Assembly (NCBI GenBank): GCA_964348275.1 | Contig: CAYGBT010000003.1 | Location: 10,819 to 74,818 of the forward strand | Direction: 5' to 3' | Length of the DNA: 64,000 nucleotides | Origin: an uncultured bacterium | GTDB taxonomy: Bacteria; Methylomirabilota; Methylomirabilia; Methylomirabilales; CSP1-5 | Position numbers and translations under genes: made by a program | The notes under the pieces: generated by a model | What the model saw: the letters and a program-made list of their open reading frames with translations, nothing else | Database searches by the model: none | What the model was told of the DNA's origin: nothing | In this document: piece after piece, positions 35,281 through 64,000 of the stretch | Layout: each line of letters opens with the position of its first letter | Position numbering within the stretch: position 1 is the stretch's first letter

Positions 35281-35281
35281 G

Positions 35282-37311: not shown

Positions 37312-37312
37312 G

Positions 37313-39733: not shown

Positions 39734-39741
39734 CGCTTCCC

Positions 39742-46139: not shown

Positions 46140-46140
46140 C

Positions 46141-47466: not shown

Positions 47467-50391
47467 CTAGCCCTCCACCGGCCCGGCGGTGATCTTCTTC
47501 AAGTAGGTGATCGCCGGTTGGGTGTTCACATGTTCCAGAATAAGATACCGCCGGGGGTTTCTTGACAGCCTGGAGGCCTCACTTTCGGAATCATTCAGGT
47601 TGCCGAAGACGATGGCCCGGGTCGGACAGGTCTGGGCGCAGGCGGGGGTGATCTCCCCGTCGCGGACTGGTCGCTTCTCCGCCTTTGCCGTGAGTTTCGC
47701 GGCTTGAATCCGCTGCACGCAGAAGGTGCACTTCTCCATCACCCCCATGGTCCGGACGGTGACATCCGGGTTGAGCTGGAGGTGAAGCGGCTCGGGCCAC
47801 TCCGCCGTGAACCAGTTGAACCGGCGGACCTTATATGGGCAGTTGTTGGAGCAGTACCGGGTGCCGACACACCGGTTGTAGACCTGCACGTTGAGGCCCC
47901 CCGGGTTGTGGTAGGTCGCGTAGACGGGGCAGACTGGTTCACACGGAGCATAGTCGCAATGCTGACAAAGCATCGGGAGAAAGTGGTGCTCGGGTCGGTG
48001 AGGTGCTCCCACATTGACGCGTTCGATCCGGATCCACGACATCTCGCGCCCCTTCGCCACCTCTGCTTTCCCCATGACCGGGATGTTGTTCTCGGCGTAA
48101 CAGGCGGTCACGCAGGCGCCGCACCCGATGCACGCATTGAGGTCAATAGCCATACCCCAGCGGTGCTGGGGATGGGGGTGCTCTGGATAGACCTGAAGCA
48201 GGTGTGGGTGTGCTTTAGCGTGACGGCCGCTCTGCAAGCTCGCCAGCGAAATTGTCTGAATGATGTCCCGGTCGTGGGGCTGATCGCTTCCCGCGGTGGA
48301 GATGAGCGGACGTCGCCGTCCCGTTCGGGCAATGGTCACGCGGGTGGCAATCCAGGGAAGCCCCCCTGAGCTTTCCTCGGGCTCGGGTGAGAGGAGGGGA
48401 ATCGGGTTGGCCCCCTGCCCATTCGCGGTGCGACCGTACGCGGTGTGTCCCTGGCCGATGGCGACCGCGAGTGTTCCGGGGTGTACACCACCGGAAAGAT
48501 GGGCTGGCAGCTCCATGTGGCCGAACGACGACTGCACCCGGAGTAGGTCTCCTGTTTTTACCCCGAGTCGGCTGGCATCGGCGGGGTGGATGTCAAGCCA
48601 GCTATCCCAGACGATATTGGTTAGGGCGTCGGGAAGCTCCTGGAGCCACGGGCGGTTCGCCATCCGCCCGTCATAAAAAACGGGAGACGGAAAGGGAATG
48701 AGCGTCAGCCCTTCAGTCTCCCCGACAAACCTCGGCGGTGTGAATTGGCGTGTGAATATCTCCGGGTTCAGCCGGACAGCCCGAGTAGGGGCGGCTTGGA
48801 AAAGGCCACCGCGCTGAAGTGCCTGGGCCCAGAAATTCTCGAAGTCCTCTGCGGGCTTGAACCCTTGGGAGAGTTCCTTCCACTGCTCCCTCAGATACGC
48901 ATAAAAGTTCTCCCATGGGAAGCGCTGCTCTAGCCCGATCCGTTTCGCTACGGATATGAGGACGTCTCCGAAGACCCGGGTGTCGTATAGTGGCCGCATG
49001 GCGGGCTGCTGGAGACCGCGGATCCCCTCCCACGGTTCGTGATCACCCCAGTTCTCTAAGAAGGTATGATCCGGCAGGATCAAGTGCGCCGCATTCGCCG
49101 TTTCGTCGAGAAAGCTGGCGAAACTGACGACCAGGGGAACCTTTTCGAGTGCTTTGCGAAAGCGCTCGCCCTCCGGAAGAGTGAAGACTGGATTCACCCC
49201 GGACAAAAGGAGCAGGGAGATCTCCCCTGCCTCCATCGCCTCAAGGAGGTTTCGCATCTCCCGGTATGTCGAGGTTTTCCCGACCGCGGCCGTGGGACCA
49301 AAGTGAATCGTCTCGCCCACATTACCGACCACATAATTGAGGAGATTCACCGCCAGACATGTTGCTGTTCCGTTGGAGGTCTTGCCATCGACCAGGGCGA
49401 GGCTCGGGCGGACACGAGCGAAGGCGCGGGCCAGGGCGCGGACCTTGTCGGGTGATACTCCGGCCTGCTCTGCCACTGCAGCGGGCGTGTAGGGTAGCAC
49501 GAGCTTCAGGAACGCCGCCTCTTCGTCGGCGGGTAAGGAGGTCGCGAGCCCCTCTTCGATGATGGCCTGAATCATGCCCAGTGCGAGGAGGCCTTCGGTG
49601 CCCGGTCGAATGGCGACCCACTCGTCCGCGTTGGCCCCTGTCAAAGAGAGGCGAGGACCAACGTAGGCGAAACGCCCCATACGCCCCTGCCGGTAACTTC
49701 GCATGGAGGCAAAGTGGCGCGCGTACTCTACCGGTGACAGCCATGTCTCCAGGAAGTCGGCCCCGAAGGAAAGGATCAGTTCTGCCTGCTCAAGGTTGTA
49801 AAAGGGGACGGCTTCGATCCCAAAGGCGGTCCCATTCGCCTCCCGGAGCGACTCGTAGTTAATCGCCTCGTAGCGGAGACGGCGACCACCACCCAGGGCT
49901 TGCAGCCACGTTTCGATCAGGTGATCCAGACTGCCTGTGAGGAGGGACGTCACACAGGCAATCCGATTTCCCTCCCCCTTAAGCTCGGCGAGGCGGCCGG
50001 CGAGAAGTCCCTCGCCTTCCTCCCACGAGATCGGCCGCCACATGCCATCCTTCCCCTTCCTCATGGGCTCTCGAACCCTCTCCGGATTAAAGAGACCCTG
50101 GAGGCTTGCCTGTCCCCGGGCGCAGAGTCGGCCGCGGTTTACCGGGTGGTCCGGGTTTCCCTCGACCTTGATGGCCCGTCCGTCCATGGTCTTCGCCAAC
50201 ATCCCACAGCCAGCGGGGCATTCCCGGCAAACGGTGGCATACCAGGTGGCCTGGCCCGGAATGATCTCTTCTGGGGGAACGACATACGGGATGAGCGTCT
50301 CAGGCGGCTGAGCCGAGCAGCCCACCATGGCGGCCGCGGCGCCCCCAATCCCCAAGACCTTGAAGAAATCTCGGCGATTCACTTCCATCAC
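47467..50391 (-). CDS. actB: ACIII subunit ActB (fused Mo-bisPGD-fold plus 4-cluster Fe-S domains)
   Basis: Tat signal MMEVNRRDFFKVLG with lipobox-like MVGC; CRECPAGCG Fe-S motif; C-terminal ferredoxin-type clusters (CIGCGACVTACY, CQHCDYAPCEPVCP, CVGTRYCSNNCP, CTFCVQR). Confidence 0.9.
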   Translation of the reverse strand: MMEVNRRDFFKVLGIGGAAAAMVGCSAQPPETLIPYVVPPEEIIPGQATWYATVCRECPAGCGMLAKTMDGRAIKVEGNPDHPVNRGRLCARGQASLQGLFNPERVREPMRKGKDGMWRPISWEEGEGLLAGRLAELKGEGNRIACVTSLLTGSLDHLIETWLQALGGGRRLRYEAINYESLREANGTAFGIEAVPFYNLEQAELILSFGADFLETWLSPVEYARHFASMRSYRQGRMGRFAYVGPRLSLTGANADEWVAIRPGTEGLLALGMIQAIIEEGLATSLPADEEAAFLKLVLPYTPAAVAEQAGVSPDKVRALARAFARVRPSLALVDGKTSNGTATCLAVNLLNYVVGNVGETIHFGPTAAVGKTSTYREMRNLLEAMEAGEISLLLLSGVNPVFTLPEGERFRKALEKVPLVVSFASFLDETANAAHLILPDHTFLENWGDHEPWEGIRGLQQPAMRPLYDTRVFGDVLISVAKRIGLEQRFPWENFYAYLREQWKELSQGFKPAEDFENFWAQALQRGGLFQAAPTRAVRLNPEIFTRQFTPPRFVGETEGLTLIPFPSPVFYDGRMANRPWLQELPDALTNIVWDSWLDIHPADASRLGVKTGDLLRVQSSFGHMELPAHLSGGVHPGTLAVAIGQGHTAYGRTANGQGANPIPLLSPEPEESSGGLPWIATRVTIARTGRRRPLISTAGSDQPHDRDIIQTISLASLQSGRHAKAHPHLLQVYPEHPHPQHRWGMAIDLNACIGCGACVTACYAENNIPVMGKAEVAKGREMSWIRIERVNVGAPHRPEHHFLPMLCQHCDYAPCEPVCPVYATYHNPGGLNVQVYNRCVGTRYCSNNCPYKVRRFNWFTAEWPEPLHLQLNPDVTVRTMGVMEKCTFCVQRIQAAKLTAKAEKRPVRDGEITPACAQTCPTRAIVFGNLNDSESEASRLSRNPRRYLILEHVNTQPAITYLKKITAGPVEG

Positions 50392-50444
50392 TACCGTCCG
50401 ATGTCTGAAGTCCGCCTCTCTGAGCCCTCAACCCTGAACTATTT

Positions 50445-50948
50445 CTAGCGGTGGCACACCGCGCAGTCGATGCTCGCCTTCTTCCGCCGATGACAGTTCA
50501 CGCAGAATTTCATGCTGAGGTCCCTGACCTGCCGCATGCGATCCATGGTCTCTACCGGGCCGTGACAGGTCTGACACTTGATTTCAGCCCGGACGTGGGG
50601 CCAATGTTCAAAAAAGACAAAGTCAGGCATCCAGGTGACCTTCGGCCAAGGGATCGACTCTTTCCGGTCCCAGTACCCCTTGAGTTTTTTCACTTCGGGT
50701 TTGTTGGCCGCGGTGATCTTGTGACACCCCATGCACCGCTCCACCGAGGGGATGCCAGCGGTTGATGACCGTCGGGCATTTACATGGCAGTACAGGCACG
50801 GGATTTTGTTCTCCCCGGCATGCACCCGGTGATTATAGGCGACAGGCAGTTCCGAGGTCGCTTGGCGACCGGAAGCCATCGTAAAAAGCCCAAGCGCGAC
50901 CACGGCCAGAAGTGCTGCCGTAATGCCTGCGATTCTGAGAAATCTCAT
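50445..50948 (-). CDS. actA: ACIII pentaheme cytochrome c subunit ActA
   Basis: N-terminal anchor; CLYCH, CMGCH, CQTCH, CVNCH, CAVCH. Confidence 0.85.
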   Translation of the reverse strand: MRFLRIAGITAALLAVVALGLFTMASGRQATSELPVAYNHRVHAGENKIPCLYCHVNARRSSTAGIPSVERCMGCHKITAANKPEVKKLKGYWDRKESIPWPKVTWMPDFVFFEHWPHVRAEIKCQTCHGPVETMDRMRQVRDLSMKFCVNCHRRKKASIDCAVCHR

Positions 50949-50960: not shown

Positions 50961-51341
50961 TTATTTTCCAGATTTCGACAGCGATCGGATGTGCGCCACG
51001 ACATTCCAAATATCCTGATCCTTCAGCTGGCCACCCCAGGGAGGCATGAGGGCGGATTTCCCCACGCTGGCACCACCCTCTTTGATGACCTTGAACAGAT
51101 ATTCATCTTTCAGAGTGCTCACGTACTTGCCATCCGCAAGATTCTGAGGCTTGGTGGGGAGTGCCGCGGCGGCCGGGCCATCCCCCTTGCCGGTGTTCCC
51201 GTGGCACGAGGCGCACAGAACATCGTACGTTTTCTTCCCCGCTTGAGCATCACCCTTCTGACCGGCAAAGCTCGTCGAGACAGCTGCCACAACCAGCAAA
51301 AGCATAGCACCCATACTCACTAAGATCTGAAATCCCTTCAA
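50961..51341 (-). CDS. Class I monoheme cytochrome c (likely oxidase electron donor)
   Basis: CASCHGNTGKGDG plus a distal Met region. TTG 51341 with GGAGG-N7 gives a proper signal peptide; the ORF-track start at 51443 is less likely. Confidence 0.75.
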   Translation of the reverse strand: MKGFQILVSMGAMLLLVVAAVSTSFAGQKGDAQAGKKTYDVLCASCHGNTGKGDGPAAAALPTKPQNLADGKYVSTLKDEYLFKVIKEGGASVGKSALMPPWGGQLKDQDIWNVVAHIRSLSKSGK

Positions 51342-51446
51342 GGCTGCACCTCCATGCGAGAGAATTGTCTTGTGTTTACGCTCCCCAAGCTTCCTCTGTA
51401 AGACGAAACGCCCAGTTTGGAAATTCCGAGTACGTTTACTCATGCC

Positions 51447-53090
51447 TTACCACACCCGAAGGCCTGGTGCGTTAAAAGGCGTCGTCGTGATCAGCCGGAC
51501 GATAGTGGGGCCGTAGGCGATCACGATCATCACCATGGCGAGGGCCAGCCACGGTCGCCACCGATCCAGGATGGGCGGGGCGTGCTCGGGACCGGAGAGT
51601 GCCTGGGCGAATGGAACCTCCACGGACTCCTGCTCGCGGGACGCCACCACCGTGAGGAAGATATTCGCGAAATAGAGAACCGCACTGACAAAAAGGATGG
51701 TCCCGCCAATCCCCACCAGCGGGAGAGCCGACTGCCACTCGGGCTGTAGATAAGGCGAGACACCGATCATCGTCCGGCGGGGCATCCCCATGAGTCCAAG
51801 CCGATGTTGAGTATTGGACAGAATCGCCATCCCCACGAACCAAGACCATGCCTGGACTAGCGCTATGCGCCGGCTCCAAAGCTTCCGCCTTCGGAGCAGT
51901 GGGACCAGCCAATACGTGATTCCCATAAAGGTCAAGGTCACCGCCGTTCCGATCGTCAGGTGGAAGTGTCCGACGACCCACGCAGTGTTGTGAACGACTA
52001 GGTTCATGGTAAACGATGCATTGATCAATCCCCCGATACCACCGAAGGCGAAGAGAATCATGGACAGGACCTGAGCCGCCAGGGAGGGATCACCCCAGGG
52101 GAGCTTTCCAAACCAGGCAACCAATCCCTTGCCGCCGCGGGCTCGCGCTCCATTTTCAAGAGAGGCAACGACGCTGAAGAAGGTCAGAAGGCTTGGGAAG
52201 AAAACGACAAAAGTCAGAAACGCATGCAGGAGCTTCCATCCTTCGCCGATGCCCGGGTCGGTAAACTGATGGTGGAAGCCGAGTGGAGTCGAGAGGATCA
52301 AAAACAAGATAAACGATACCCGAGCTAACGGATCGCTGAAGAGCCGCCCTCCGGCCTGCCGAGGGACAAGCGTGTACCAGGAGATGTACGCAGGGAGGAG
52401 CCAGAAGTAGACGATCGGATGCCCGGTGTACCAGAAGAGGACCCGGGCAAAGAGAGCGTCTGTTCCAGCGACCAGCCCAAGTGACCACGGAATGAGCATA
52501 AAAATCATTTCGACGGCCAACCCGAGGGAGGCAAAGGTCCACATCACGAAGGTGACCAACGACATAAATGCGGGCAGGGGCGTCCGGATCTCCGGATTCC
52601 GTGACCGCCAGGCGCGATAGGTGAGCACGAGGTTCAAAGTCACGATCCAGGTGGCGACCACAACCACCGTGAGCCCGACGTAAAACGCCCAATGGGCTTT
52701 CATGGGGGGATAAAAGGTGAAGAGAACTGTTGCCGCATTGCCCACGAGCGGGATCGCCGCCAGGATGAGCCCGCCAGTCATGAGCCAAAGGGTTGTCCAC
52801 GCGAGGGGGCGACTCCAGAGAGGCATGGCGAGCGCCCGGCTGGTGATGAACTGCAGAAACCCGGAGATGAAAAAGGTCGTGAATACCAGGACGTTCAATA
52901 CTCCATGGAGGCTCAAACCGTGATAGTACGATTTAATCACGGGGGTGAGCCACGGGTACAGATTGATACCGGCGTGCTCGAGCGCCTGAAAGAGGCCGAT
53001 GGACACGCCGCCAAAAAGGGCGACCAGCGCGACAACAAGATATGCGGCGGTCATGCGGTTTTCCGGAGTCAGATCAGGGGTGGTGGTCAT
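51447..53090 (-). CDS. cbaA: B-family (ba3-type) heme-copper oxidase subunit I
   Basis: SYYHGLSLHGVLNVLVFT matches the Thermus ba3 CbaA block SYYQGLTLHGVLNAIVFT as I recall it; His ligands (GHPIVYFW, HHQF..); about 13 TM helices. Confidence 0.92.
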   Translation of the reverse strand: MTTTPDLTPENRMTAAYLVVALVALFGGVSIGLFQALEHAGINLYPWLTPVIKSYYHGLSLHGVLNVLVFTTFFISGFLQFITSRALAMPLWSRPLAWTTLWLMTGGLILAAIPLVGNAATVLFTFYPPMKAHWAFYVGLTVVVVATWIVTLNLVLTYRAWRSRNPEIRTPLPAFMSLVTFVMWTFASLGLAVEMIFMLIPWSLGLVAGTDALFARVLFWYTGHPIVYFWLLPAYISWYTLVPRQAGGRLFSDPLARVSFILFLILSTPLGFHHQFTDPGIGEGWKLLHAFLTFVVFFPSLLTFFSVVASLENGARARGGKGLVAWFGKLPWGDPSLAAQVLSMILFAFGGIGGLINASFTMNLVVHNTAWVVGHFHLTIGTAVTLTFMGITYWLVPLLRRRKLWSRRIALVQAWSWFVGMAILSNTQHRLGLMGMPRRTMIGVSPYLQPEWQSALPLVGIGGTILFVSAVLYFANIFLTVVASREQESVEVPFAQALSGPEHAPPILDRWRPWLALAMVMIVIAYGPTIVRLITTTPFNAPGLRVW

Positions 53091-53608
53091 GATCCCAAGT
53101 CCACGCGGCGAATATTCGCCTCCGATGTAGGCTCAACGATGACCTTGCCCCACATCGCATGGTGAGCGACGCCACAGTACTCGTGACAGAAAAAGGGGTA
53201 TTCGCCAGATCGGTCGAATCGCGTGGTGACCCGGGCGATCTGGCCGGGAAGGAGCATCACGTTGACGTTCGCCCGGGGAATGAACAGTCCGTGGACCACG
53301 TCCCTGCTGGTGGCCACGAACGTCACTGTCGACCCTGCCGGCACACGGATCTCATTCGGGGTGAAAAGCCATATACCGGCGATCATGCGTACCTCGTAGG
53401 CTCCGGGACCAACCTGAACAACTCCTGGCTGGTCAAACGGCGCCGTGGCCATGACCCTGGTCGGGTTCACCCGTCCCTCATCCCCCGGCAGGTGTTTACC
53501 GGTGCCAAAGGCAAAGACCACTAACGCCACGAGCATCCCGATCGGAATCGCGATGCTGGGAAGAATCCACGCGAGCTCGTAAAGATAGACCGTGCTGCCG
53601 CGCTGCAT
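53087..53608 (-). CDS. cbaB: ba3-type oxidase subunit II (CuA)
   Basis: Single TM helix plus cupredoxin with the CuA site DVVHG...CHEYCGVAHHAM; ATGA overlap with subunit I. Confidence 0.9.
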   Translation of the reverse strand: MQRGSTVYLYELAWILPSIAIPIGMLVALVVFAFGTGKHLPGDEGRVNPTRVMATAPFDQPGVVQVGPGAYEVRMIAGIWLFTPNEIRVPAGSTVTFVATSRDVVHGLFIPRANVNVMLLPGQIARVTTRFDRSGEYPFFCHEYCGVAHHAMWGKVIVEPTSEANIRRVDLGS

Positions 53609-53945: not shown

Positions 53946-54284
53946 TCATGCCTTTCCTTCCTTGTCGGTCTTGATGAGCAGCAGGAGCATCACCAAGGGG
54001 GTTTTGGCCACAATACTGTGACGAAGATGTGGCGGCATGTGCACCCATGTTCCGGCGTGGGCAGACATCGTGTCCTCTCCTAGCGTCAAGTGGGCTTCCC
54101 CCTCAAGGACGTGGAGGATCGCGGGCTGCGACGCGGTGTGCTCGGAAAGTTCCTGACCCGCTGCGAAGCCGAAGAGGACGGCCCTGAGCCGGTCGTCGGT
54201 GTAAATGGCACGACTGACAATACTGTCGGGGGGGATATCCGGCAACAAGTCAGATAAATTGGCAAGATAGGTATATGTGTTCAT
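53946..54284 (-). CDS. Cupin-domain protein
   Basis: Cupin motifs (ELSEHTASQPAILHVLEGE ... GTWVHMPPHLRHS); start at MNTYTYL assumed. Confidence 0.7.
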   Translation of the reverse strand: MNTYTYLANLSDLLPDIPPDSIVSRAIYTDDRLRAVLFGFAAGQELSEHTASQPAILHVLEGEAHLTLGEDTMSAHAGTWVHMPPHLRHSIVAKTPLVMLLLLIKTDKEGKA

Positions 54285-54477
54285 GCTAGCAATTCCAATG
54301 GGGCCTTCGGGACACATAATGACCCATGCTATGGTGGATCCGCAACACCCGTCTGATGAAAAATGGGAGAAGTCTCAAGGTTTTCTGCGGCCTGTCAGCA
54401 CACAGTATGCGTTGCTCTCTCGGGTCGACGTTAGCCCCCGATGTATGCTTCGAGATATTCTGGGCGCGCGCTGCGGT

Positions 54478-55149
54478 TCACGCGTTGCACTTCCAGGTGC
54501 TTCCCTGAACGATGTCCGTCGCGTAGTCGGAAAGCTTTCGGATCTGTGCTTGGATTCCCGTTGTCTCTTTATCGAGAACGAGCTTGAGCAGCGCTCCGAT
54601 CCTGCGGTAATACTCCTCCTCGGTTTGTCCTTCAAGGCGGCGGACAAAGACCTCGTACCAGCGTCCGAGGTGGTCGGCGAGGAACTTTCGGTAGGCGTCT
54701 CCGCAGATCTCTGCCCCGTCCTGGTCTCCCTCCTTAAAGGTGTAGGACAGCTTCTGAAGAAGCAGGGAAAGGAACTCAAGCTCTGCGACCAAACTGTCCG
54801 GTTCCAGGGGAATGGTTAAATTGAGCCCGAAGGCGCGGTAAAATCCCTCAATATCCGACAGCTCGGCCGCCCTCCTCGCTGTCTTGTCGATCTCATAAGC
54901 GGTTTCCCAGGCAGGGGCCTTGACACTCGTCGCAAAGAGGGCGTTGTATTCCCCCTGAAGGTCCAGAAGTCTCTGACGCGCTTGCTTCAAGACCGGTCTC
55001 AGCGACAGGGCATCATAGCGTATCGCGAGAGCTTGTACGGATCGGTCAAGATCTTCGAGACTCTCTTCCAATGTGTGCATAACGGTCTGTTCAGGGTAGG
55101 AGAACGCGAGGGAAAGAAATTGATAGACAAAAGCCCGGTACGCCTCCAT
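54478..55149 (-). CDS. TorD/NarJ-family redox-enzyme maturation chaperone
   Basis: GEYNALF and PDSLVAELEFLS motifs. Start codon ATG 55149-55147 follows 1 nt after the gamma-subunit stop codon (55153-55151). Confidence 0.7.
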   Translation of the reverse strand: MEAYRAFVYQFLSLAFSYPEQTVMHTLEESLEDLDRSVQALAIRYDALSLRPVLKQARQRLLDLQGEYNALFATSVKAPAWETAYEIDKTARRAAELSDIEGFYRAFGLNLTIPLEPDSLVAELEFLSLLLQKLSYTFKEGDQDGAEICGDAYRKFLADHLGRWYEVFVRRLEGQTEEEYYRRIGALLKLVLDKETTGIQAQIRKLSDYATDIVQGSTWKCNA

Positions 55150-55150
55150 C

Positions 55151-56014
55151 TCATTTCTCCTCGATCTTGAGTGGAGTCCAGGCGAATTCGAGAGATTTTC
55201 TGGCTCCCCGCTCGTTGTTCGCGCCATCCCACACGGCAAAGTTGATAAACGTGTTCTTTCCGGCTCCCCACTCGGGGTTGCTCGTGTTCTCCTCCACGAA
55301 TTTTCGTTTGATGGCGACGTGCCACCGGCCATCCCTGTAGATGCCTTTTCCCTCTGCCCCCTGAATATCTTTCCAGGTTGACGACCCAAATCCTTCTGCG
55401 ACAACCTCCCGGACGGGAGTTTTCACAGTATTTTTCCTGAACACCTTTTCCCCGCCGATGTAGTTCAAAGCATAGGGACTGTGCCAGTCTTCAGGATACT
55501 TGTAGGGAGCGTTTGCATGAGGATACCAGTCGTACGTGTAGTTTGGTTTGGCCTTTTCCGTGTCGTAATAGCCTTGGTCAATATTTTCCTGTCGAAATGC
55601 CGTCCAGTGAAGGATGAGTACCCGCTGGCCCGGACCGCCCATGGTGATCGGGACCCGATCGCTGGGTATATATGGAATCTGGACCGCGACCGCATCGGAG
55701 AACTCTCCCAGCGAGTGGAACCGATTCTCGGTGGGGTCCTTCCACACGAGCAAGAAGCCGATTTCCGTGTCTGTACTGAGGGTCCTTACGGTGAGAGACC
55801 TGACGGAGGGATTCATATGCATCGGGGTCGTGATAATCTGGCCATGGAGGTCCACGGTGACGGGTGCGGCCTTATTCCAGACCTTGCTGAGGGGGTCCAG
55901 CGGTATCTCCCCGGGGACGCGTGTGGAGACCAGGGCCTCCTGCGCTAAAGCGGGGACCGCCAGTATCAGTGCCGCAGCGAGTAGCGGTGCCGAGAACAAT
56001 GCAGTCCGTTTCAT
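55151..56014 (-). CDS. Type II DMSO-reductase-family gamma subunit (EB_dh heme-b domain; NxrC/EbdC-like)
   Basis: Sec signal MKRTALFSAPLLAAALILAVPALA; blocks DAVAVQIPY, ITMGGPG, NFAVWDG typical of EbdC/NarC-like gamma subunits. Confidence 0.8.
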   Translation of the reverse strand: MKRTALFSAPLLAAALILAVPALAQEALVSTRVPGEIPLDPLSKVWNKAAPVTVDLHGQIITTPMHMNPSVRSLTVRTLSTDTEIGFLLVWKDPTENRFHSLGEFSDAVAVQIPYIPSDRVPITMGGPGQRVLILHWTAFRQENIDQGYYDTEKAKPNYTYDWYPHANAPYKYPEDWHSPYALNYIGGEKVFRKNTVKTPVREVVAEGFGSSTWKDIQGAEGKGIYRDGRWHVAIKRKFVEENTSNPEWGAGKNTFINFAVWDGANNERGARKSLEFAWTPLKIEEK

Positions 56015-56123
56015 CCCCTCGCCTCCTGTTTCTATTTCAGTTATCAACCCCCAGCTTTCTGCTTTGCGGCTTGCCCTGAACTTTCTGTGCTGACTGCTTG
56101 GATCTATCAAGCTTTCCCTCCCC

Positions 56124-57260
56124 TTACGGGATGTCCTGGCGCACGACGGTGAGCTGCTTGTCCTTGTGGGGTCTATGCTGGAACGGTTCCTGAACAGGAA
56201 CCCGAACGACCTCTGTTCCCTTTTCGTCGAATCCAATCGCTTCCCCTTTTTTCACCTGGAAGGAGTGGAGGATGAGGGGGCTGGAACCGAAGAGGTGTAA
56301 TAGCCCTTGAAGTTCCGATTCCTTCCCGGCCCGCATGTCCTTGTAAGTCTTGACCGCCTGCTCGACTCCTGGACCGTACATTTGCATCAGAAACCGGGGC
56401 GGGACGTGGATCGGGGGGATGTAGTAGACGTTCGGCTCAAGGCCGGACTGAGGAAAGAGGGGAAGGGCCACCTTCTTGATATGCACGAGAAAGTCGATGG
56501 GGTTGTCGGCTCTCACCTTCTTGGGGGGGCTCACAAATCCCTGCATGCGTATCTTTCCGATGCACGTTGTCACGCACTGCGGCTGACGGCCCTGCTCGAT
56601 CATGGGGAAGCATCCGATGCACTTCTGAGAGATGCGGGCGACGAAGTTGAACAGCACCTTCTTGTATGGGCAGGCCATGACGCACTCCTGATAGCCCTCA
56701 CATCGCTCCGGGTCGATCAGGACGATGCCGTCTTCCTCGCGCTTATAGATGGCCTGGCGCGGACAGGCGGCCAGGCAGGCAGGATTGGTGCAGTGGTTGC
56801 AAATTCGCGGAAGGTAGAACATCCAAACGGGATGAGGCAGCGCATCTAGGATGGTGCCGACGTCGACGGGCTCGTTGACCTCGTCTTCGCCGATGTTGGG
56901 GTTCATCCAGTCCCTTTCTTCCGGTTTCCATCCCTGAACCCGCTCGCCCGGTGGGGCGTCGAGAACCGTTTTTCCGGTATACGCGTCCCCCGTCCACTCC
57001 TGGTTATCTCCCAACATCTCCATGAGACGGACATCCCAGCCCATCGGGTAGAACCCATACGGTTTGGTCTCGACGTTATTCCACAGCATATACTCCTGTC
57101 CCCGACCCGGCGTCCACGTGGTCTTGCAGGCGACCGTGCAGGTCTGGCAGGCAATACACTTGTTCAGGTCCATTACCATGGCGAACTGCCGCTTCGGCCG
57201 CTTGGACTCGTATGGGTACGGCACTTCTCTTTTCAGGTGCCAGTTGTCAGCTTTGGCCAT
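56124..57260 (-). CDS. Type II DMSO-reductase-family beta subunit (NxrB/NarH-like, 4 Fe-S clusters)
   Basis: CIACQTCTVACK, CNHCTNPACLAACP, CEGYQECVMACP, CIGCFP...CVTTCIG; no signal peptide (Tat hitch-hiker). Confidence 0.9.
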   Translation of the reverse strand: MAKADNWHLKREVPYPYESKRPKRQFAMVMDLNKCIACQTCTVACKTTWTPGRGQEYMLWNNVETKPYGFYPMGWDVRLMEMLGDNQEWTGDAYTGKTVLDAPPGERVQGWKPEERDWMNPNIGEDEVNEPVDVGTILDALPHPVWMFYLPRICNHCTNPACLAACPRQAIYKREEDGIVLIDPERCEGYQECVMACPYKKVLFNFVARISQKCIGCFPMIEQGRQPQCVTTCIGKIRMQGFVSPPKKVRADNPIDFLVHIKKVALPLFPQSGLEPNVYYIPPIHVPPRFLMQMYGPGVEQAVKTYKDMRAGKESELQGLLHLFGSSPLILHSFQVKKGEAIGFDEKGTEVVRVPVQEPFQHRPHKDKQLTVVRQDIP

Positions 57261-57271
57261 GGCTCATCCCC

Positions 57272-60200
57272 CTATCGTTTCTTGAACTTCACATATGCGG
57301 CCTGAAGGTACTTTGTGAAACCTTTCCGGGGTCTTGTCGGTCGAAGGCCGAGCTTTACAGGCCTCCACACGCCCTTGGCGCCAAGGCCGCCGTCTTCCGC
57401 TTTGCGCACCTTCCCGAGGGCCTCGCGGGGGGCACCAATGGGCCCGTGGACGTCCACGGCAAACCCCTTGCCAATCGCCTGGCCCATCAGGTTCTTTCGC
57501 ACTAACGAGTCGGTCATATAGGTCGGCTTGAGCCAGGATCGCGTCACACTCTGGTGGCTTCCCCTGCGGTACAGCGACTGGTAGCCCGTCCCCGGGTTTT
57601 TCGCGAGGCCGGTGCGATTCACCTTGGTTCCCTTCACGGTTCCGTGGGAAGACCCGTACATGTTAAACCAGATCTTGGCTACGCCCGAGGGGGTGTTGTT
57701 TGAGGCGCGGGCCCGGATCAGCATCCGTCCGACCTCGTAGTCTTCGTCTCGTCCTTTCCACCCTGTAAAGGGACGATCCTGGGGATCGGCGTCCACCCAG
57801 ACGTAGTCGCCATCCTGGGTCCCAAGCTTCTCGAGGTCCTTTGGGTTGACGTCGATGTAGGCCTCGGCGACGAACGGCTGCCGCTTGTCGTGCCGGTAGA
57901 TATCGCCAAACGGACCGAAGAGAAGGGTAGTGACATCCGTGTCACCCGTGGTGGTATGGGCGGCATGGCGGTATTTCGGCGTGTGCACGATGTGGCTTGC
58001 TCCGAAGGTCACCGTGAGAGGATGCCTGGTGCCGGGAAGTTTCTCCGGGGAGACCATGACGTTACGCGCCTGTCGCAGTTCCGTGGACGTGAGCGCTTTG
58101 GCAGAGTCCACACCGTAGTCCTCCGGACGCTTGGGGCGCAGCAGGGGGTGAGGCTTGGCGACGATCACGTTAGGCTCGTGGTGGGTGGAGTCGATGGGTT
58201 CCCGGTATACCGGCAGATTTTCGCCGGCGTCCACGAATTCGTCCTCTTCACGGTAGAACTCCAGCCTGCCGCTCTTGGTGTACCAGGGCTGGTTCTCATC
58301 GGTCTGGTCGATTCCCACATACTTCGGGTAGCTCCGGGTCATGATCAGCGAGGGTATCCCTTGCTGAGCCTTCTGGGCAATATCGGCCAGCTTGTACCCG
58401 CGGAGATTAGACGAGGCGTTGATGACGCGCTGGGTGTAAGCTTCCGGTTGTCCCTCGATGGCGAACTTCCAAAAGTCATGGAATCGTTGGTCCGCCGTCA
58501 GCTCGGAGAGACGGACCGCCACCCGGGCGAACACCTCCACGTCGTTTCTGGTGTCGAAGAGGCGGCGGTGCCCGGTCTTGGGCCAGACGTAGACGAATGG
58601 GTTCGTGACGGAGCCGGCGATGTCCCAATATTTGTTCTCGTTCCAGGCGTCCACCCCCAGCACGATATCCGAGTACTCACAGGTGAGCGACCACCACCAC
58701 TCGTTGGTAACGATACAGTCGATCTTGGGGAGGGTGTTTGCGATGATGTTGTACTTCCACTTGGCGTTCCCGAGAATGGAGTTGGCATCCACGAACCACA
58801 TCAACTTGGTGGGCGTAGGCATGTGAGTCTTTCCAGTGAGCACCGCATCTCCCATCATCAGGGGGTGGTCGTCGTGGGAATAATAGTGGGCCGACTCCGC
58901 CCTGAAGTAGAACTTCACTCGGGAGGGCTTTTGGGGATCGAGCTGAACGCGGAACGGATCTTCAGCGAGGAACTGCCCGGCCCCGTTGAAGAGAGGGAGA
59001 CGGAAGTTTCCCGCGTATGAGCCAATGTTGCCGGTCAGGTGCCCGATATTGTCGGTTAAGGCACAGACGAGGTACATCGCGCGGTCCTTTAAGTCTGCAT
59101 GCTGGTACTGGTTCACCCCCATTCCCTGCGAGAGTCGCGTCTGTTTGGGATGGGCGGCAATCTCCCGGGCCAATTCCACGATCTTCTTGGCTGCAACCCC
59201 GGTGATCTTCTCGGCCAGCTCCGGCCGGTAGTTCTCCTCGAAGAACTCGAAGTAAACGTGGAAGAGCGGCCGGACCTCTACGTCCTTGCCCTCGATGGTC
59301 TTCAGTCGGTGACTTCCCGTCAGCGCAGGATCGATGTTGAGTTTCCAGAAGTCCTCGCCTACGGCGTCCCGCGTGACCACCTTGAGGGAGTTGGTTCGGG
59401 TATCCCACATCACGAAGTCGTTCATATCCTCGTTTCGGATATTCTCAGGAATATACTGCTTCTCCTGTTGAAAGAAGAGGGGAAGCTTCTCACCTTTTTT
59501 GAAGACCGCGGCCTTTTGCAGGGGCGCGGGCTGGTAATTGGGGACGATGTCCTTCCCTCGCAAAAGCTTTCCAGTATCCATGCGAACGAGGAGGGGCATG
59601 TCGGTGAAACTCTTGACATATCGCTCCCGATAGCGCTTTTCCTTCATGATCACGTAGGCGAGGGAGTTCGCGAACACTGTATCAGTTCCTGTGCGAAGGA
59701 TGATGACCTCATCGGCGGCCCGGGAGGTGGGGGAGTAATCGTTCGAGATCACCGTCACCTTGGATCCCTTGGCCCGCGCTTCGGTCAGCCAGTGGCAGTC
59801 AGGCATCTTGGTGGTGAAAGGGTTCATCCCCCAGAGGATGTTGAGCTTGGAATGCTCCCAGAGGCAGAGGTCGTAATCGGTGTTCTGCTGACCGGTGACC
59901 ATGGGGTGGCCGGGGGCAAGATCGGTGTGGAACGCGTAGTTGTCCCACCCGCGGCCTCCTTTAGCCTGCTTGGGCGGGACGCCACGGATGTGGTGATCGA
60001 GGAGCGCCATCATGTTGGACATCCGGTAGGGCGCTGTGTACCGGGTGACGGCGAGGAAGGGCATGGATCCCCGGAACTTGAAGGCGCGGGTTCCGGCGCC
60101 GTCCATGGCGTCCAGCATAACCTTTGGATAATGTCCCTGAGACTCGAGGCGCTTTCGCCCCTCATCACCAGAGTAAGTCTGGGCGACATTGATCAGGCTC

Positions 60201-60742
60201 TTGGCGAGGATGTCGCTCACCTCATCCCAGGTCAGGCGGAGCCACTTATCCTTGCCCCGTTGGAAGAATTTTTCAGGGGGCCTCCCTGTCACAGGGTCGC
60301 GGGGGAACCCGGACCGAAACCATTCGTAGTAACCTTTCCGGACCATAGGTCCTTTGACCCGGCGGTCTCCGTAAAAGCGCCGCATGAGAGACAAGCCCTT
60401 ATTACAGCACCTGGGGTCCCATCGGTGCGATGCCTTCAGTCCGTACAGATCTGTGGCCTCGCCGTAGCCATGGGTGGGTTCGATACGCGTGATCACTCCG
60501 TTCTTGACGTGGCCGGTCAAAAGGCAGTTGTGCGTGTCGTTGGGGGCGCAGAGAAAGGTTATCGTGGATTCTGAACGCGCGATGTCCCGGTAAAACCGTT
60601 CCCAGTCCCGGTTTGGGTAGACAGCCAGGGGGTTGTCCACCTTGACCACCGGTTCAAAGACCCGAAAAGTGGCCCCCAGGTTGGAAACGCCCGCCAAGGA
60701 GAGTCCGAAAATCTTCACGAAATCTCGTCTGGTGACCTCCAT
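57272..60742 (-). CDS. Type II DMSO-reductase-family catalytic alpha subunit, periplasmic, NxrA-like (substrate unproven)
   Basis: 1156 aa; twin-arginine signal MEVTRRDFVKIF; N-terminal Fe-S region FLCAPNDTHNC...C; Mo-bisPGD domains throughout. Confidence 0.88.
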   Translation of the reverse strand: MEVTRRDFVKIFGLSLAGVSNLGATFRVFEPVVKVDNPLAVYPNRDWERFYRDIARSESTITFLCAPNDTHNCLLTGHVKNGVITRIEPTHGYGEATDLYGLKASHRWDPRCCNKGLSLMRRFYGDRRVKGPMVRKGYYEWFRSGFPRDPVTGRPPEKFFQRGKDKWLRLTWDEVSDILAKSLINVAQTYSGDEGRKRLESQGHYPKVMLDAMDGAGTRAFKFRGSMPFLAVTRYTAPYRMSNMMALLDHHIRGVPPKQAKGGRGWDNYAFHTDLAPGHPMVTGQQNTDYDLCLWEHSKLNILWGMNPFTTKMPDCHWLTEARAKGSKVTVISNDYSPTSRAADEVIILRTGTDTVFANSLAYVIMKEKRYRERYVKSFTDMPLLVRMDTGKLLRGKDIVPNYQPAPLQKAAVFKKGEKLPLFFQQEKQYIPENIRNEDMNDFVMWDTRTNSLKVVTRDAVGEDFWKLNIDPALTGSHRLKTIEGKDVEVRPLFHVYFEFFEENYRPELAEKITGVAAKKIVELAREIAAHPKQTRLSQGMGVNQYQHADLKDRAMYLVCALTDNIGHLTGNIGSYAGNFRLPLFNGAGQFLAEDPFRVQLDPQKPSRVKFYFRAESAHYYSHDDHPLMMGDAVLTGKTHMPTPTKLMWFVDANSILGNAKWKYNIIANTLPKIDCIVTNEWWWSLTCEYSDIVLGVDAWNENKYWDIAGSVTNPFVYVWPKTGHRRLFDTRNDVEVFARVAVRLSELTADQRFHDFWKFAIEGQPEAYTQRVINASSNLRGYKLADIAQKAQQGIPSLIMTRSYPKYVGIDQTDENQPWYTKSGRLEFYREEDEFVDAGENLPVYREPIDSTHHEPNVIVAKPHPLLRPKRPEDYGVDSAKALTSTELRQARNVMVSPEKLPGTRHPLTVTFGASHIVHTPKYRHAAHTTTGDTDVTTLLFGPFGDIYRHDKRQPFVAEAYIDVNPKDLEKLGTQDGDYVWVDADPQDRPFTGWKGRDEDYEVGRMLIRARASNNTPSGVAKIWFNMYGSSHGTVKGTKVNRTGLAKNPGTGYQSLYRRGSHQSVTRSWLKPTYMTDSLVRKNLMGQAIGKGFAVDVHGPIGAPREALGKVRKAEDGGLGAKGVWRPVKLGLRPTRPRKGFTKYLQAAYVKFKKR

Positions 60743-60856
60743 GACCGTTGCCTCCTCTCCTATGCGTTCCTCCTGCCTGGACGGTATGTGGCGCCGCTTC
60801 CTCTTTTTTTCCCCTAGCCCAAGCGATGCAGATTGAAAACATATCGTATGAGAGAT

Positions 60857-61303
60857 CTACAGAAGGACCTGCTCGTGCTTAGGAACCCCCTGATCGCCTC
60901 CATATTCGCGGGCGAGATCTTCGAGCGACTTTTTTTCCAATGCTAGGAGCAGTTGGGGTTTAATCCGGGCCCATTCGGAGTGCAGGAGGCAAGGATTTTC
61001 GTCTTCGCACCGGTGGCCCCAGAACAAGCAGCGCCGAAAAAGATCCGCTCCCTCGATCGCCTCGAGCAGCTCTCGCAGTTTCATTTCTGAGGCGTCGCAG
61101 GCGAGACAATAGCCACGTTGGCGACCGCGAAACGACTGAAGCAGACCGTGCCGGACCAGCTTCTGAAGGATCTTGGCCAGGAAGCCGACCGGGAGATCTC
61201 CGGCCTCGGCGATATGATGCAAGGTCAGGACTGTCGCCGGCGGCTGGTGGGCCAGGTAGATCATCGCCCTCAGTCCGTATTCGCTCTCGCGGCTCAGATT
61301 CAT
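60857..61303 (-). CDS. Rrf2-family transcription regulator (NsrR/IscR-like, Fe-S type)
   Basis: MNLSRESEYGLRAMIYLA wHTH; Cys triad C-x6-C-x5-C (CLFWGHRCEDENPC); start at ATG 61303 assumed. Confidence 0.85.
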   Translation of the reverse strand: MNLSRESEYGLRAMIYLAHQPPATVLTLHHIAEAGDLPVGFLAKILQKLVRHGLLQSFRGRQRGYCLACDASEMKLRELLEAIEGADLFRRCLFWGHRCEDENPCLLHSEWARIKPQLLLALEKKSLEDLAREYGGDQGVPKHEQVLL

Positions 61304-61626
61304 GGTCTCAAATGACCCATCGGGTCTTTTGCCTCCGATCATGCCTAAATTAGAACAATAACAGCCAACATTCAATGATGTGTGTCTTATGGCGATGTGA
61401 TTTTCGTCATATATTTACAGGTGTTGTTTAAGCTTTCCGGGAGCCGAGGGTGGCTCCAGTGGTGCTCGGGACAGGTGAGCGAGTTTGGTGGCGGTAAGCG
61501 TGTCGAGGGACCTCTTGGCCTTAGGGCCGTCGACGGGCGTGCCTGAAGTGCTGAGGGCCGAGGAGTAACGCGGTCTCTCCTCGGCCCTCTCTCTCAGCAG
61601 CCAATATTCATCCAAATGACCAGAAC

Positions 61627-62529
61627 TTAGAACTCCTCCTCTTGCTCGTGCTCGTCATGAAGCCAGACGAGGTAGTCCACCAGGTCCTCTGAGAGGTCAA
61701 AGAAGGCCCTGCTGACCTCGGACGTCTGCTTAGCCAGAAGGTAAGGGGTTGCTCCTCCTTGCACCGTCCCGAGCGCAGGCTCATAAGGGATTGGCACCCG
61801 GATCGGGATACCGAACGTTCGGCCCAACTCCTCAACACTCTCGCCCCGGTATCGTCCCTCCATGTTCGAGATAAGGCCGATGGCCGGGGTGCTACTGGCA
61901 TCAAAGAACTTCCAAAGACTTCTGATCCGCTCCCGCTCCCCCTCGCCAGGACGGGTGACGATCAGCGTGGCCTCGATCGGAGGCAGCACTTCTGAGAGGT
62001 CTTCCACCGCCTCGATGCCGGGGGGAAACTCGATCAGAAGCAGGTCCAGCTCGTCCCAATCGACCTCGCCCAGAGATCCCCGCACGGTGTTCCAATCTCT
62101 CAGCCCTGCGACTCCCGGGGTGAAGCGATCCCCCATGAGCATGTCCAGGGTGACCACCTGCACGTCCCCGAGTCCCCGAGCCGGACGAAACCGGGTACCG
62201 CGTCTCTCCAGCCCGGTGGTGTTTCCACCCAGCCGCTCGGGGAAGGTCGAGCCACCGAGATCGAGGATGCCGATGTTGGGCGTCCGTACGACCTCGAATT
62301 CGGAACCCTCGAGCTTTCCATGCCGCAGGGCCATGGCCAGATTCATGGTGAACGTGCTCACGCCGACGCCGGGTCTGGTGCCGGTGACGGCCACCTTGAA
62401 TTCCACCGGCGCCATGAGGTTCTTGAGCCGCTTCAGCGTCTCGGGCTCGTCGAGGTGCAGCCCCGCGGCCATGGCCTGTTTCATATCCCTGTCTGGAATC
62501 GCCATCGTGTTATCCTCCCGCGCGATCAC
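61627..62529 (-). CDS. Mrp/MinD-superfamily-like protein with a degenerate P-loop
   Basis: The position of the deviant Walker A reads VTGTRPGVGVST (no Lys); the DxD-like site reads DLGG; no CxxC. Overall SIMIBI-like layout (LLLIEFPPG, ATLIVTRPG). Confidence 0.55.
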   Translation of the reverse strand: MIAREDNTMAIPDRDMKQAMAAGLHLDEPETLKRLKNLMAPVEFKVAVTGTRPGVGVSTFTMNLAMALRHGKLEGSEFEVVRTPNIGILDLGGSTFPERLGGNTTGLERRGTRFRPARGLGDVQVVTLDMLMGDRFTPGVAGLRDWNTVRGSLGEVDWDELDLLLIEFPPGIEAVEDLSEVLPPIEATLIVTRPGEGERERIRSLWKFFDASSTPAIGLISNMEGRYRGESVEELGRTFGIPIRVPIPYEPALGTVQGGATPYLLAKQTSEVSRAFFDLSEDLVDYLVWLHDEHEQEEEF

Positions 62530-62581: not shown

Positions 62582-64000
62582 TCATATGATATCCCTCCGG
62601 CCAAAGCTCATGGCCTCGAAGGAGCGCTTGTAGGGCGACTCCCCGGTCTTCTTGACCTTGGCCACCGCCAGCATGAAGCGGTAGTGGTTGTTGAAGGGGT
62701 CTGTCACCCGGGGGATGAGGTCGTTGGCCGACTTGTCCATATCCATCTTCAAGACGGCCATGATCCCTTTCTTCACCGCCGGGGTCACGATGGCCACGGC
62801 CGAGATGGACGCCTTGGTCATCTTGATATGGCCATGCTTCATCAGCCCGGTGAAGCTGTTGTCATCCCCCATGACCCCGTAAAATCCACCTGTCTGGACG
62901 GGGATCCGCTCATTGGCAAGGCGCACCCAGTCACCGCTCTCGATCCCGTGGCGTTTGGCGTCGTCCGGGTGGATCTCGACGAAGACGTCCGGCCACCGCT
63001 GCATGATATACGGTCTCCGCATATCATCGAACTGGGTTTGCCAGGTCTCGTTGATGCGGACGTTGGTCAGCCAAAGCTCCTCACCCCTGGGCTTGAGCCA
63101 CTCGTAGTAGTCAGAGAAGAAGTCCCACGGCGACCGCATCCAGTTGAACTTGCCGGTCTGCGACTTGGCCCCCGTGAGCCATTTCTGCCAGACCGTGGGC
63201 CCCTGCGGCCCGGTCTCGGGGAGCTTGAGCGTCGAGTCGTGGAGGCGCACGCTTCCGACCAATTTTCCATCTTCATACCGGATGGGGCACTGAATCCCCT
63301 CGGTCCCGTAGGTCCTGAGGAGTTCGTGACCGCGCATCCCCTTCTTTTTGGCCAGCCAGACCAACGGATGGTAGTTCACCCGGCTTCCCCTTCTGAACCG
63401 GGCGCCCTCTTCGAAGACGTCGTTCGAATCCTTCCAGTCAAATCCGTCAAAGCCCATCCGCTTGGCAAACTGGGCGGCGATCCACCAGTCGGGCTTGCTG
63501 TCGCCTGGCGCATCATAGAATTTCTCGTAGATGCGGATCCGTCTCTCGCCGTTACAGCGCGTAAAGTCTTCCTCGCCCCAGGTGGCGGCCGGCAGGACGA
63601 TATCGGCGTACGTCGTGCTGATGGGATCCCGCAGGTAGATCTCCTGATTGACCAGCACCATGCCACCGCTGTCCATCCGCTTCTTGAACGTCTCGATCGC
63701 CTTTTTCTTGTCGAAGCTTTTGAGCTGGTGTGGGTTGTTCCGGGTCAGGGATTCAAAGACGCGGCGCAGCTCGGCGCCGGCCGCCATCGACTGGATCCAG
63801 GTGGTCCCAATCACCCAGGCAAACCTGACGTTTCCGCTCTGCACCCAGCGGTCCAAATCGATCTTTCGCTTCCGCCGGCCGGGGTACTTCTCCGGCGATC
63901 GCTCATTGGGGTTTCGTCCGGCCGTGTTTCCGCCCCGCTGGTGGCCGCCAAATCGGCCGACCATCTGGCCGGGCCGATTCCCCGCCCCGCAGAGGAGCGC
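62582..64000 (-). CDS. aioA: Arsenite-oxidase large-subunit (AioA)-like molybdoenzyme, C-terminal ~470 aa (N-terminus outside window)
   Basis: The frame stays open to the window edge. GRFGGHQRG, NGERRIRIYEKFYDAPG, FDGFDWKDSNDVFEEG and the C-terminal ..SFGRR.. parallel the Alcaligenes AioA blocks (MGGHQEG, NGERRIRLSEKFMDPPG, FEGFDWKTEEDAFNDG, ..SFKSRRFA) as I recall them. Confidence 0.75.
   Translation of the reverse strand, partial: ALLCGAGNRPGQMVGRFGGHQRGGNTAGRNPNERSPEKYPGRRKRKIDLDRWVQSGNVRFAWVIGTTWIQSMAAGAELRRVFESLTRNNPHQLKSFDKKKAIETFKKRMDSGGMVLVNQEIYLRDPISTTYADIVLPAATWGEEDFTRCNGERRIRIYEKFYDAPGDSKPDWWIAAQFAKRMGFDGFDWKDSNDVFEEGARFRRGSRVNYHPLVWLAKKKGMRGHELLRTYGTEGIQCPIRYEDGKLVGSVRLHDSTLKLPETGPQGPTVWQKWLTGAKSQTGKFNWMRSPWDFFSDYYEWLKPRGEELWLTNVRINETWQTQFDDMRRPYIMQRWPDVFVEIHPDDAKRHGIESGDWVRLANERIPVQTGGFYGVMGDDNSFTGLMKHGHIKMTKASISAVAIVTPAVKKGIMAVLKMDMDKSANDLIPRVTDPFNNHYRFMLAVAKVKKTGESPYKRSFEAMSFGRRDII

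Follow-up and report, generated by a model that had tools for sequence, protein, structure and literature searches.

A gene cluster for a putative periplasmic nitrate/nitrite molybdoenzyme of the Hydrogenobacter thermophilus type in an uncultured Methylomirabilota bacterium

Results and discussion

Identification of the gene cluster

The stretch of DNA analysed here (64 kb, hereafter the window) is part of contig CAYGBT010000003.1 of an uncultured NC10/Methylomirabilota bacterium. Between bp 54478 and 61303, on the minus strand, it contains a complete and well-conserved gene set for a periplasmic molybdenum enzyme. With modest confidence, we take this cluster to encode a three-subunit nitrate/nitrite molybdoenzyme that is orthologous to the nitrate reductase (NAR) of the Hydrogenobacter thermophilus type and whose physiological direction is nitrate reduction. 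This direction is preferred because the nearest characterised homologue is a nitrate reductase. The original prediction, made from the sequence alone, was partly supported: its soluble periplasmic nitrite oxidoreductase (NXR) or nitrate reductase-like enzyme is right as to family and topology, but the nearest characterised relative reduces nitrate and is not a nitrite oxidiser.

The open reading frame (ORF) map and family scans recovered all of the genes that had been proposed. The first is an Rrf2-family regulator (bp 60857–61303, 148 amino acids (aa); Pfam Rrf2 106.7 bits, NCBIfam rrf2_super 99 bits), followed by an intergenic region of 114 nt (bp 60743–60856) in which the ribosome-binding site GGAGAGGAGG could be read from the sequence. 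Next come the catalytic alpha subunit (bp 57272–60742, 1156 aa), the beta subunit (bp 56124–57260, 378 aa; Pfam Fer4_11), the gamma subunit (bp 55151–56014, 287 aa; Pfam EB_dh, 85 bits) and a NarJ/TorD-type assembly chaperone (bp 54478–55149, 223 aa; Pfam Nitrate_red_del, 54.7 bits), the start codon of which lies one base past the gamma stop codon. On a public Logan contig of 5.5 kb with an identical beta subunit, an independent gene caller also arrived at a gamma subunit of 287 aa and a chaperone of 223 aa. The cluster is not a chance arrangement, because homologues (45–88% identity) with the same subunit order are present in dozens of genomes.

The predicted topology was confirmed as well, with a signal for twin-arginine translocation (Tat) on alpha, a Sec signal on gamma and no signal on beta. 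In a hydropathy scan of the five proteins from Rrf2 to the chaperone, the gamma signal peptide was the sole hydrophobic stretch, so that the claimed lack of a membrane anchor holds for the operon itself.

Similarity to the H. thermophilus enzyme

The alpha subunit is 77.7% identical to that of H. thermophilus TK-6 (BAI70164.1), which carries the NCBI name dissimilatory nitrate reductase subunit. Its beta and gamma subunits and its chaperone are matched at 76%, 67% and 52% identity, respectively, and the order alpha-beta-gamma-chaperone is the same. Both enzymes have an alpha subunit with a Tat signal and an EB_dh-type gamma subunit in which the N-terminal segment is the only hydrophobic one, and both clusters adjoin haem-copper oxidase genes. 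At every position checked close to the active site (N68, D69, D274, T311, M541, Q545 and K923, in the numbering of the window's alpha subunit) the two alpha subunits are identical.

The two loci differ in their host, which is a member of the Aquificota in the case of H. thermophilus, a thermophile with a much lower G + C content than that of the window (approximately 59%). Unlike the H. thermophilus locus, the window has an Rrf2 gene directly upstream on the same strand, continues on that strand into genes for a cupin, a ba3 oxidase and alternative complex III (ACIII), and is without a nearby canonical narGHJI-narK set. The H. thermophilus enzyme is reportedly "anchored with a putative transmembrane subunit"; in its locus the N-terminal segment of gamma is the sole candidate for such a subunit, and the gamma subunit of the window has the same feature. 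Kitzinger et al. (2018, PMC6050957, citing Kameya et al. 2017) describe the H. thermophilus enzyme as a membrane-bound NAR that is oriented towards the periplasm and has been functionally characterised. It is the only member of its clade to have been purified.

The catalytic subunit and its active site

Alpha starts with MEVTRRDFVK, which contains the Tat motif T-R-R-D-F-V-K, and a Pfam Molybdopterin domain was found in it. In a PDB search, residues 1–1152 aligned with NxrA of Kuenenia stuttgartiensis (7b04_B; E 1.8e-255, 853 bits), whereas scores were far lower for PcrA (199 bits), E. coli NarG (139 bits) and EbdA (115 bits). The subunit does not branch with the Pcr, Clr, Ser, Ebd and Ddh enzymes, a grouping that would have spoken against the original prediction. 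Its length had been likened to that of the periplasmic NxrA proteins and set apart from the shorter alpha subunits of other enzymes, which agrees with the 1148 aa of Kuenenia NxrA, the 899 aa of the PcrA chain and the 976 aa of EbdA.

For the comparison of individual residues an alignment of 69 alpha sequences was used. The Kuenenia NxrA sequence in it was rebuilt from alignments, and its numbering gives the C67, N70, D71, C75, C115 and D275 of the structure paper. The Fe-S region of the window's alpha reads F-L-C65-A-P-N68-D69-T-H-N-C73, and C65, D69, C73 and C113 are the predicted ligands of the [4Fe-4S] cluster FS0. They agree with the signature [H/C]-x3-[C/D]-x3-C-xn-C as C65-x3-D69-x3-C73...C113, the variant with three Cys and one Asp. 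N68 stands where NarG has the Asn that coordinates the substrate (N52) and where ethylbenzene dehydrogenase has Ile (Chicano et al. 2021, PMC8387239), and D274 occupies the position of the Mo-ligand Asp (NarG D222, Kuenenia D275). None of the FS0, substrate-Asn and Mo-ligand positions varies among the NXR-like sequences (68/68). From these residues alpha is predicted to carry a molybdenum-bis(pyranopterin guanine dinucleotide) cofactor (Mo-bisPGD) and the FS0 [4Fe-4S] cluster.

With the Kuenenia NXR-ABC complex (PDB 7B04) the cluster shares three subunits homologous over their full length, the 3Cys/1Asp FS0, the substrate Asn, the Mo-ligand Asp, the Met/Lys-ligated haem b and a soluble gamma subunit. 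Alpha is only 39.6% identical to Kuenenia NxrA, and the window has Thr311 for Asn312, Met541 for Glu527 and Gln545 for His531; neither an NXR-T tubule subunit nor an anammoxosome context was observed in the window. E. coli NarGHI (PDB 1Q16) likewise has Mo-bisPGD, FS0, an electron wire of four clusters, the Mo-ligand Asp and the substrate Asn, and its Thr259 corresponds to Thr311. It differs in facing the cytoplasm, in the lack of a Tat signal, in an alpha identity of 27.8%, and in a third subunit that is the dihaem membrane protein NarI, whereas that of the window is an EB_dh-type gamma. The claimed dissimilarity of the Fe-S region to NarG was confirmed, as Cys65 and Asp69 occupy the positions of NarG His49 and Cys53. 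A canonical membrane-bound NarGHI was rejected on account of these two residues, the Tat signal, the missed narG cut-off (see below) and the lack of a Nitrate_red_gam gene.

According to a recent review, four positions near the active site distinguish Kuenenia NXR from E. coli NAR. At two of these the window is NXR-like (D69, with D71 in Kuenenia and C53 in NarG; K923, with K917 and H1092), at one it is NAR-like (T311, with N312 and T259) and at one it resembles neither (M541, with E527 and A542). Residue 545 (bp 59108–59110) is Gln and is equivalent to NarG His546 and Kuenenia His531. This Gln is present in 35 of the 35 members of the Hydrogenobacter-type clade described below and in 12 of the 34 sequences outside it; judged from the alignment, it is neither a clade-specific nor a direction-specific marker. 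A search of the 69-sequence alignment for residues that set this clade apart gave no directionality marker: only four columns were near-diagnostic, none of them with a known role. The window's alpha has the pattern Y-4x-D-11x-QN that is reported for Nitrospira defluvii; to see whether the Gallionellaceae loci are Nitrotoga-type, the Y-4x-D-11x-QM pattern reported for Nitrotoga NxrA was tried on them, where its mapping was not clean.

Beta, gamma and chaperone

The 15 Cys residues of beta are grouped 4+4+3+4, from which three [4Fe-4S] clusters and one [3Fe-4S] cluster are predicted. Beta matches Kuenenia NxrB (7b04_A, E 2.5e-107) and, having no signal peptide, is presumably exported bound to alpha. 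Gamma starts with the signal MKRTALF...ALA|QE, ending A-L-A|Q-E, and matches Kuenenia NxrC (7b04_C, E 3.9e-16); it also aligns with EbdC. Its predicted haem-b ligands are Met125 and Lys273, equivalent to M155 and K305 of Kuenenia. The haem b of EbdC is also ligated by Met and Lys (PMC8387239).

The joint presence of a beta subunit with four Fe-S clusters, an EB_dh-type haem-b gamma subunit and a NarJ/TorD-type chaperone, together with FS0 and the Mo-ligand Asp of alpha, confirms the predicted membership of the type II dimethyl sulphoxide (DMSO) reductase superfamily. The periplasmic NXR-like branch that had been proposed within it is confirmed by the export signals, the full-length homology to 7b04, the 3Cys/1Asp FS0 and the Met/Lys haem b, all of which were found. 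All four components scored below the curated cut-offs of the NCBIfam type II DMSO reductase models (TIGR03479/03478/03477/03482; the chaperone matched DMSO_red_II_cha): alpha 293.9 against 984.75, beta 265.8 against 480.7, gamma 128.2 against 169.85 and the chaperone 66.9 against 152.3. The narG and ebdA equivalog models were missed more widely, with alpha scoring 159 against the narG cut-off of 1084. Since the subfamily cut-offs are missed by all four, the cluster lies within the superfamily and outside the Ebd/Ser/Clr/Ddh-type subfamily.

Relatives and phylogenetic placement

In the protein search, alpha was 86–88% identical to metagenome proteins whose cluster includes metagenome-assembled genomes (MAGs) of Ca. 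Methylomirabilales, 67% identical to Sulfurihydrogenibium azorense and 62% to Hydrogenobaculum sp. Y04AAS1. Among species-representative genomes, a further scan gave Aquificaceae, several Alphaproteobacteria, one Desulfuromonadales MAG and one Nitrospirae MAG at 70–78% identity, a wide range of other phyla at 50–55%, and Gallionellaceae, Nitrospinota and Nitrospirae groundwater MAGs at 44–48%.

A neighbour-joining tree was made of the 69 alpha subunits (1147 columns, 100 bootstraps, E. coli NarG as outgroup). The window's alpha was found in a clade of 35 members together with H. thermophilus, Hydrogenobaculum and Sulfurihydrogenibium (98% bootstrap). Inside this clade it grouped with four Methylomirabilales loci of the comparison set, L002–L005 (99% bootstrap).

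A separate clade of about 53% identity, consisting of Acidobacteriota and hot-spring "HR" bins (L028 16216–19214, L031, L036, L037, L043 and L048), has the order alpha-beta-chaperone-gamma. Downstream these loci have two cupredoxin/CuA-like proteins, rubrerythrin and a protein that weakly matches Fer4_5 (4Fe-4S); no complete oxidase is present in them.

Nitrate reduction or nitrite oxidation

In the preferred reading, the NarJ-like chaperone would hold apo-alpha until the Mo cofactor has been inserted, after which the folded alpha-beta pair would be exported via Tat, on the signal peptide of alpha. Gamma would be exported by Sec and bind a high-potential, Met/Lys-ligated haem b. Judging from the conserved ligands, electrons would run from haem b over the four Fe-S clusters of beta to FS0 (three Cys and Asp69) and on to Mo, which Asp274 would ligate, with Asn68 placed to hold the substrate. 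The enzyme would exchange electrons with periplasmic or membrane-anchored c-type cytochromes, and ACIII would tie these to the quinone pool; respiratory reduction of nitrate to nitrite would then take place in the periplasm with electrons from quinol, by way of ACIII and c-type cytochromes. In vitro the enzyme would probably be reversible, like related NXRs. Chicano et al. (2021, PMC8387239) showed that the NXR of Kuenenia works both ways.

Several points weigh against nitrate reduction as the physiological role. The direction of catalysis is not readable from the sequence, and the broad clade in question also includes that of Ca. Nitrotoga, a true nitrite oxidoreductase (PMC6050957). A terminal oxidase follows the enzyme genes on the same strand, which would suit nitrite oxidation too, and nirK, nirS, nor and nos were not found within the 64-kb window. 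The tree is a neighbour-joining tree, in which the deep branching, including the position of Kuenenia, is without resolution. That the characterised NAR equals the BAI70164 homologue rests on the passage in Kitzinger et al. (PMC6050957) and on the NCBI naming. In addition, the H. thermophilus locus itself carries a canonical narGHJI-narK set: in the MAG CP076323 (locus L001, bp 1–5742) it lies approximately 5 kb from the NXR-like cluster, with oxidase genes in between and with its NarG split over two gene calls (838 and 352 aa). This set bears on the question of which H. thermophilus enzyme was characterised.

The same enzyme could also be a physiological nitrite oxidoreductase, a reading that we consider possible but doubtful. 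Electrons would then pass from the gamma haem b via c-type cytochromes to the ba3 oxidase, ACIII would run in reverse for reducing power, and the NC10 host would be a nitrite oxidiser or a nitrite detoxifier. The enzyme, the ba3 oxidase, a monohaem cytochrome c and ACIII form one same-strand block that is kept in L003 and L004, and haem-copper oxidase genes neighbour the homologous cluster in H. thermophilus and other Aquificaceae; however, this adjacency includes the nitrate-reducing H. thermophilus. The 3Cys/1Asp FS0 and Lys923 are common to the lineage and Kuenenia NXR and are not found in NarG, but Thr311 is NarG-like, where Kuenenia has Asn. Nitrite oxidation was proposed as a possibility by Kitzinger et al. 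(PMC6050957) for uncultured carriers of the sister clade in which high-potential cytochromes are present, and Versantvoort et al. (2018, PMC6094997) suggested it for the NXR-like enzyme, known from its alpha subunit, of the NC10 genome CSP1-5. Against this stands the 78% identity to a nitrate reductase, the nearest characterised relative.

Ca. Nitrotoga fabula, a proven nitrite oxidiser, provides a close parallel. Its NXR also has a Tat-signal alpha, a signal-less beta, a Sec-signal gamma without transmembrane helix and a chaperone, and the organism has ACIII and a haem-copper oxidase (PMC6050957). The original prediction had held that no cultured nitrite oxidiser was described with such a respiratory combination; this has to be withdrawn, as Ca. 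N. fabula combines a periplasmic NXR with ACIII, which replaces complex III, and a cbb3 oxidase, the oxidase of the window being of the ba3 type. Kitzinger et al. (2018, PMC6050957) placed the Ca. N. fabula NXR in the same NXR/NAR "sister clade" (sister to the Nitrospira/anammox NXR lineage) as the H. thermophilus enzyme, a clade that also holds putative NARs of known nitrate reducers. In our tree, Gallionellaceae sequences (the family of Nitrotoga, represented by members other than N. fabula itself) fall outside the clade of the window, at 45–47% identity, which argues against nitrite oxidation.

A bolder version, in which a non-methanotrophic lineage of the Methylomirabilota is a nitrite oxidiser with a Hydrogenobacter-type enzyme wired to the ba3 oxidase and with ACIII reversed towards quinone, seems unlikely to us. 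If true, nitrite oxidisers would gain a new phylum (NC10), and the "nitrate reductase" branch of the sister clade would run oxidatively in nature.

Some Sulfurihydrogenibium species with homologues of the enzyme respire selenate or arsenate. A type II DMSO reductase-family enzyme for another substrate (chlorate/perchlorate, selenate, iodate or an organic compound) would fit this, the scores below the cut-offs of the named subfamilies and the iodate-reductase-like gene set that adjoins in this lineage, in an island that handles other oxyanions, but it is very improbable given a Kuenenia NxrA match score at least about four times those of PcrA, NarG or EbdA, a substrate-coordinating Asn (Ile in ethylbenzene dehydrogenase) invariant in 68/68 NXR-like sequences, and checked active-site positions that are all those of the nitrate-reducing H. 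thermophilus enzyme. With such identity to a nitrate reductase, the earlier view that the substrate might "equally" be another one does not stand.

That uncultured bacteria, NC10 included, carry NXR/NAR-like enzymes of this lineage has already been published (PMC6094997, PMC6050957). In metagenome surveys such enzymes are taken to mark nitrite oxidation, which is the sole biological source of nitrate. An NXR-looking cluster that is closest to a nitrate reductase implies that such "nxrA" calls are no evidence of a nitrifier without physiological data, a caution that covers MAGs of NC10, Alphaproteobacteria, Aquificota and others. Besides this caution, the main value of the cluster is that directionality in NC10 bacteria could be tested on it.

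Respiratory genes downstream of the cluster

The host assignment is supported outside the respiratory genes by GlnE (bp 4805–8128), which is 82% identical to proteins of Ca. Methylomirabilales/candidate division NC10 MAGs. Past the chaperone, on the same minus strand, the presence of both the ba3 oxidase and ACIII claimed for the neighbourhood was verified. The first gene encodes a cupin-domain protein (bp 53946–54317, 123 aa; Pfam Cupin_2). It is followed by subunit II (bp 53087–53608) and subunit I (bp 51447–53090) of a ba3-type haem-copper oxidase, both taken from the ORF list and with L003 homologues that match Pfam COX2 and COX1, respectively. Next are a membrane-anchored monohaem cytochrome c (bp 50961–51443, Pfam scan) and ACIII in the order ActA-B-C-D-F-E (bp 43719–50948; Pfam NrfD, ActD, Cytochrome_C7 and Cytochrom_C, with ActB from the ORF list).

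The order alpha-beta-gamma-chaperone-cupin-COX2-COX1-cytochrome c-ActA-ActB is repeated in L003 and L004 at 62–92% identity, and the synteny of the ba3 oxidase is kept in L002, L003 and L004. The oxidase is not part of the enzyme and is likely a shared respiratory module. The monohaem cytochrome c and ACIII may provide the electron link that joins quinol and the enzyme. Homologues of the cupin (75–76% identical) also lie between the chaperone and oxidase genes in L003 (9702–10067) and L004 (17578–17922).

Beyond ACIII the same strand continues with dihaem and multihaem cytochromes c and then with a second molybdoenzyme module (bp 33806–39763, minus strand). This module consists of a Mo-enzyme subunit with an Fe4S4 domain (bp 37313–39763, 816 aa), an ORF without Pfam match (bp 36696–37217, 173 aa), an NrfD-type membrane subunit (bp 35282–36781) and a cytochrome c (bp 33806–35233, 475 aa). 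The respiratory genes are flanked, also on the minus strand, by genes for a cyclic-nucleotide-binding protein (bp 32831–33313), a further cytochrome c (bp 31942–32730), a radical-SAM/SPASM protein (bp 29139–30260) and a Crp/Fnr-type regulator (bp 28396–29094). The respiratory island appears to span roughly 28–64 kb of the window.

Denitrification or autotrophy genes were not found in the window or upstream in L004, where haem-biosynthesis genes are located. The region upstream of nxrA in L003 (2–3208), an 88%-identical relative, contains a partial second beta-like gene (42% identity), a NarJ-like gene, an ORF of 322 aa without Pfam match and, adjoining nxrA, a gene for an HPP-family membrane protein. 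The HPP family includes nitrite transporters, and this neighbour speaks for an enzyme of the nitrate/nitrite couple.

The Rrf2 regulator and the upstream spacer

The Rrf2 protein contains the motif C92-x6-C99-x5-C105-x2-H108, and these four residues align with C92, C98, C104 and H107 of IscR. An IscR-like Fe-S ligand set of three Cys and one His is therefore predicted. The only NCBIfam model passed by the protein is that of the Rrf2 superfamily: it scored below the equivalog cut-offs of NsrR (NF008240, 46 against 182) and IscR (TIGR02010, 59 against 207), and those of RirA and CymR were missed also. An Rrf2 gene is also present upstream in L004 (73% identity) and L005 (55% identity), with the Cys and His positions conserved in both. 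Several Aquificaceae have more distant Rrf2 genes (27–30% identity) upstream in divergent orientation, and these show the C...C...C-x2-H pattern as well. As an Fe-S-type regulator, the protein would probably switch the operon on a redox, NO (nitric oxide) or O2 signal.

A consensus scan found no sigma-70-like promoter, and terminator-like matches were no more frequent than in shuffled sequence. Just past the stop codon of the upstream Mrp gene (see below) there is a perfect, GC-rich hairpin of 11 bp (GGGCCGAGGAG ... CTCCTCGGCCC, approximately bp 61555–61587, minus strand) without a U-tract, separated from Rrf2 by an AT-rich spacer of 250 nt. The hairpin and spacer suggest that Rrf2 and the nxr genes are a transcription unit apart from the upstream genes.

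The upstream iodate-reductase-like gene

At the end of the window lies a further Mo-enzyme gene (bp 62582–64000, minus strand), which is cut by the window end so that just its C-terminal half is inside. It is AioA-like, with 171 bits against a cut-off of 359 for the arsenite oxidase AioA model, and has a counterpart of 63% identity in L002. Genes for two cytochrome c peroxidases (CCP) and a Rieske subunit precede the homologous Mo gene both in L002 (7440–12933) and in L005 (3334–9090). The order idrP2-P1-B-A is characteristic of iodate reductase, including that of Ca. Methylomirabilis iodofontis (PMC10989891). Arsenite oxidase was rejected for this enzyme, as the CCP-CCP-Rieske-Mo order of the relatives fits an iodate-reductase-like enzyme better.

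In L005 the iodate-reductase-like set abuts Rrf2-nxrA directly upstream, and it is possible that an iodate-respiration module is linked to the nitrate/nitrite enzyme in the NC10 lineage. By their conserved physical linkage, the enzyme, the ba3 oxidase, ACIII and the iodate-reductase-like cluster stand out as a compact and probably mobile island for periplasmic respiration.

Between the IdrA-like gene and Rrf2, a P-loop ATPase of the Mrp/NUBPL type (Fe-S cluster carrier family) is encoded on the minus strand (bp 61627–62529), which may be a maturation factor. Distant Mrp-like genes (25–28% identity) were also seen after the NXR-like operons of the Gallionellaceae-type/Nitrospinota loci L041, L050 and L059.

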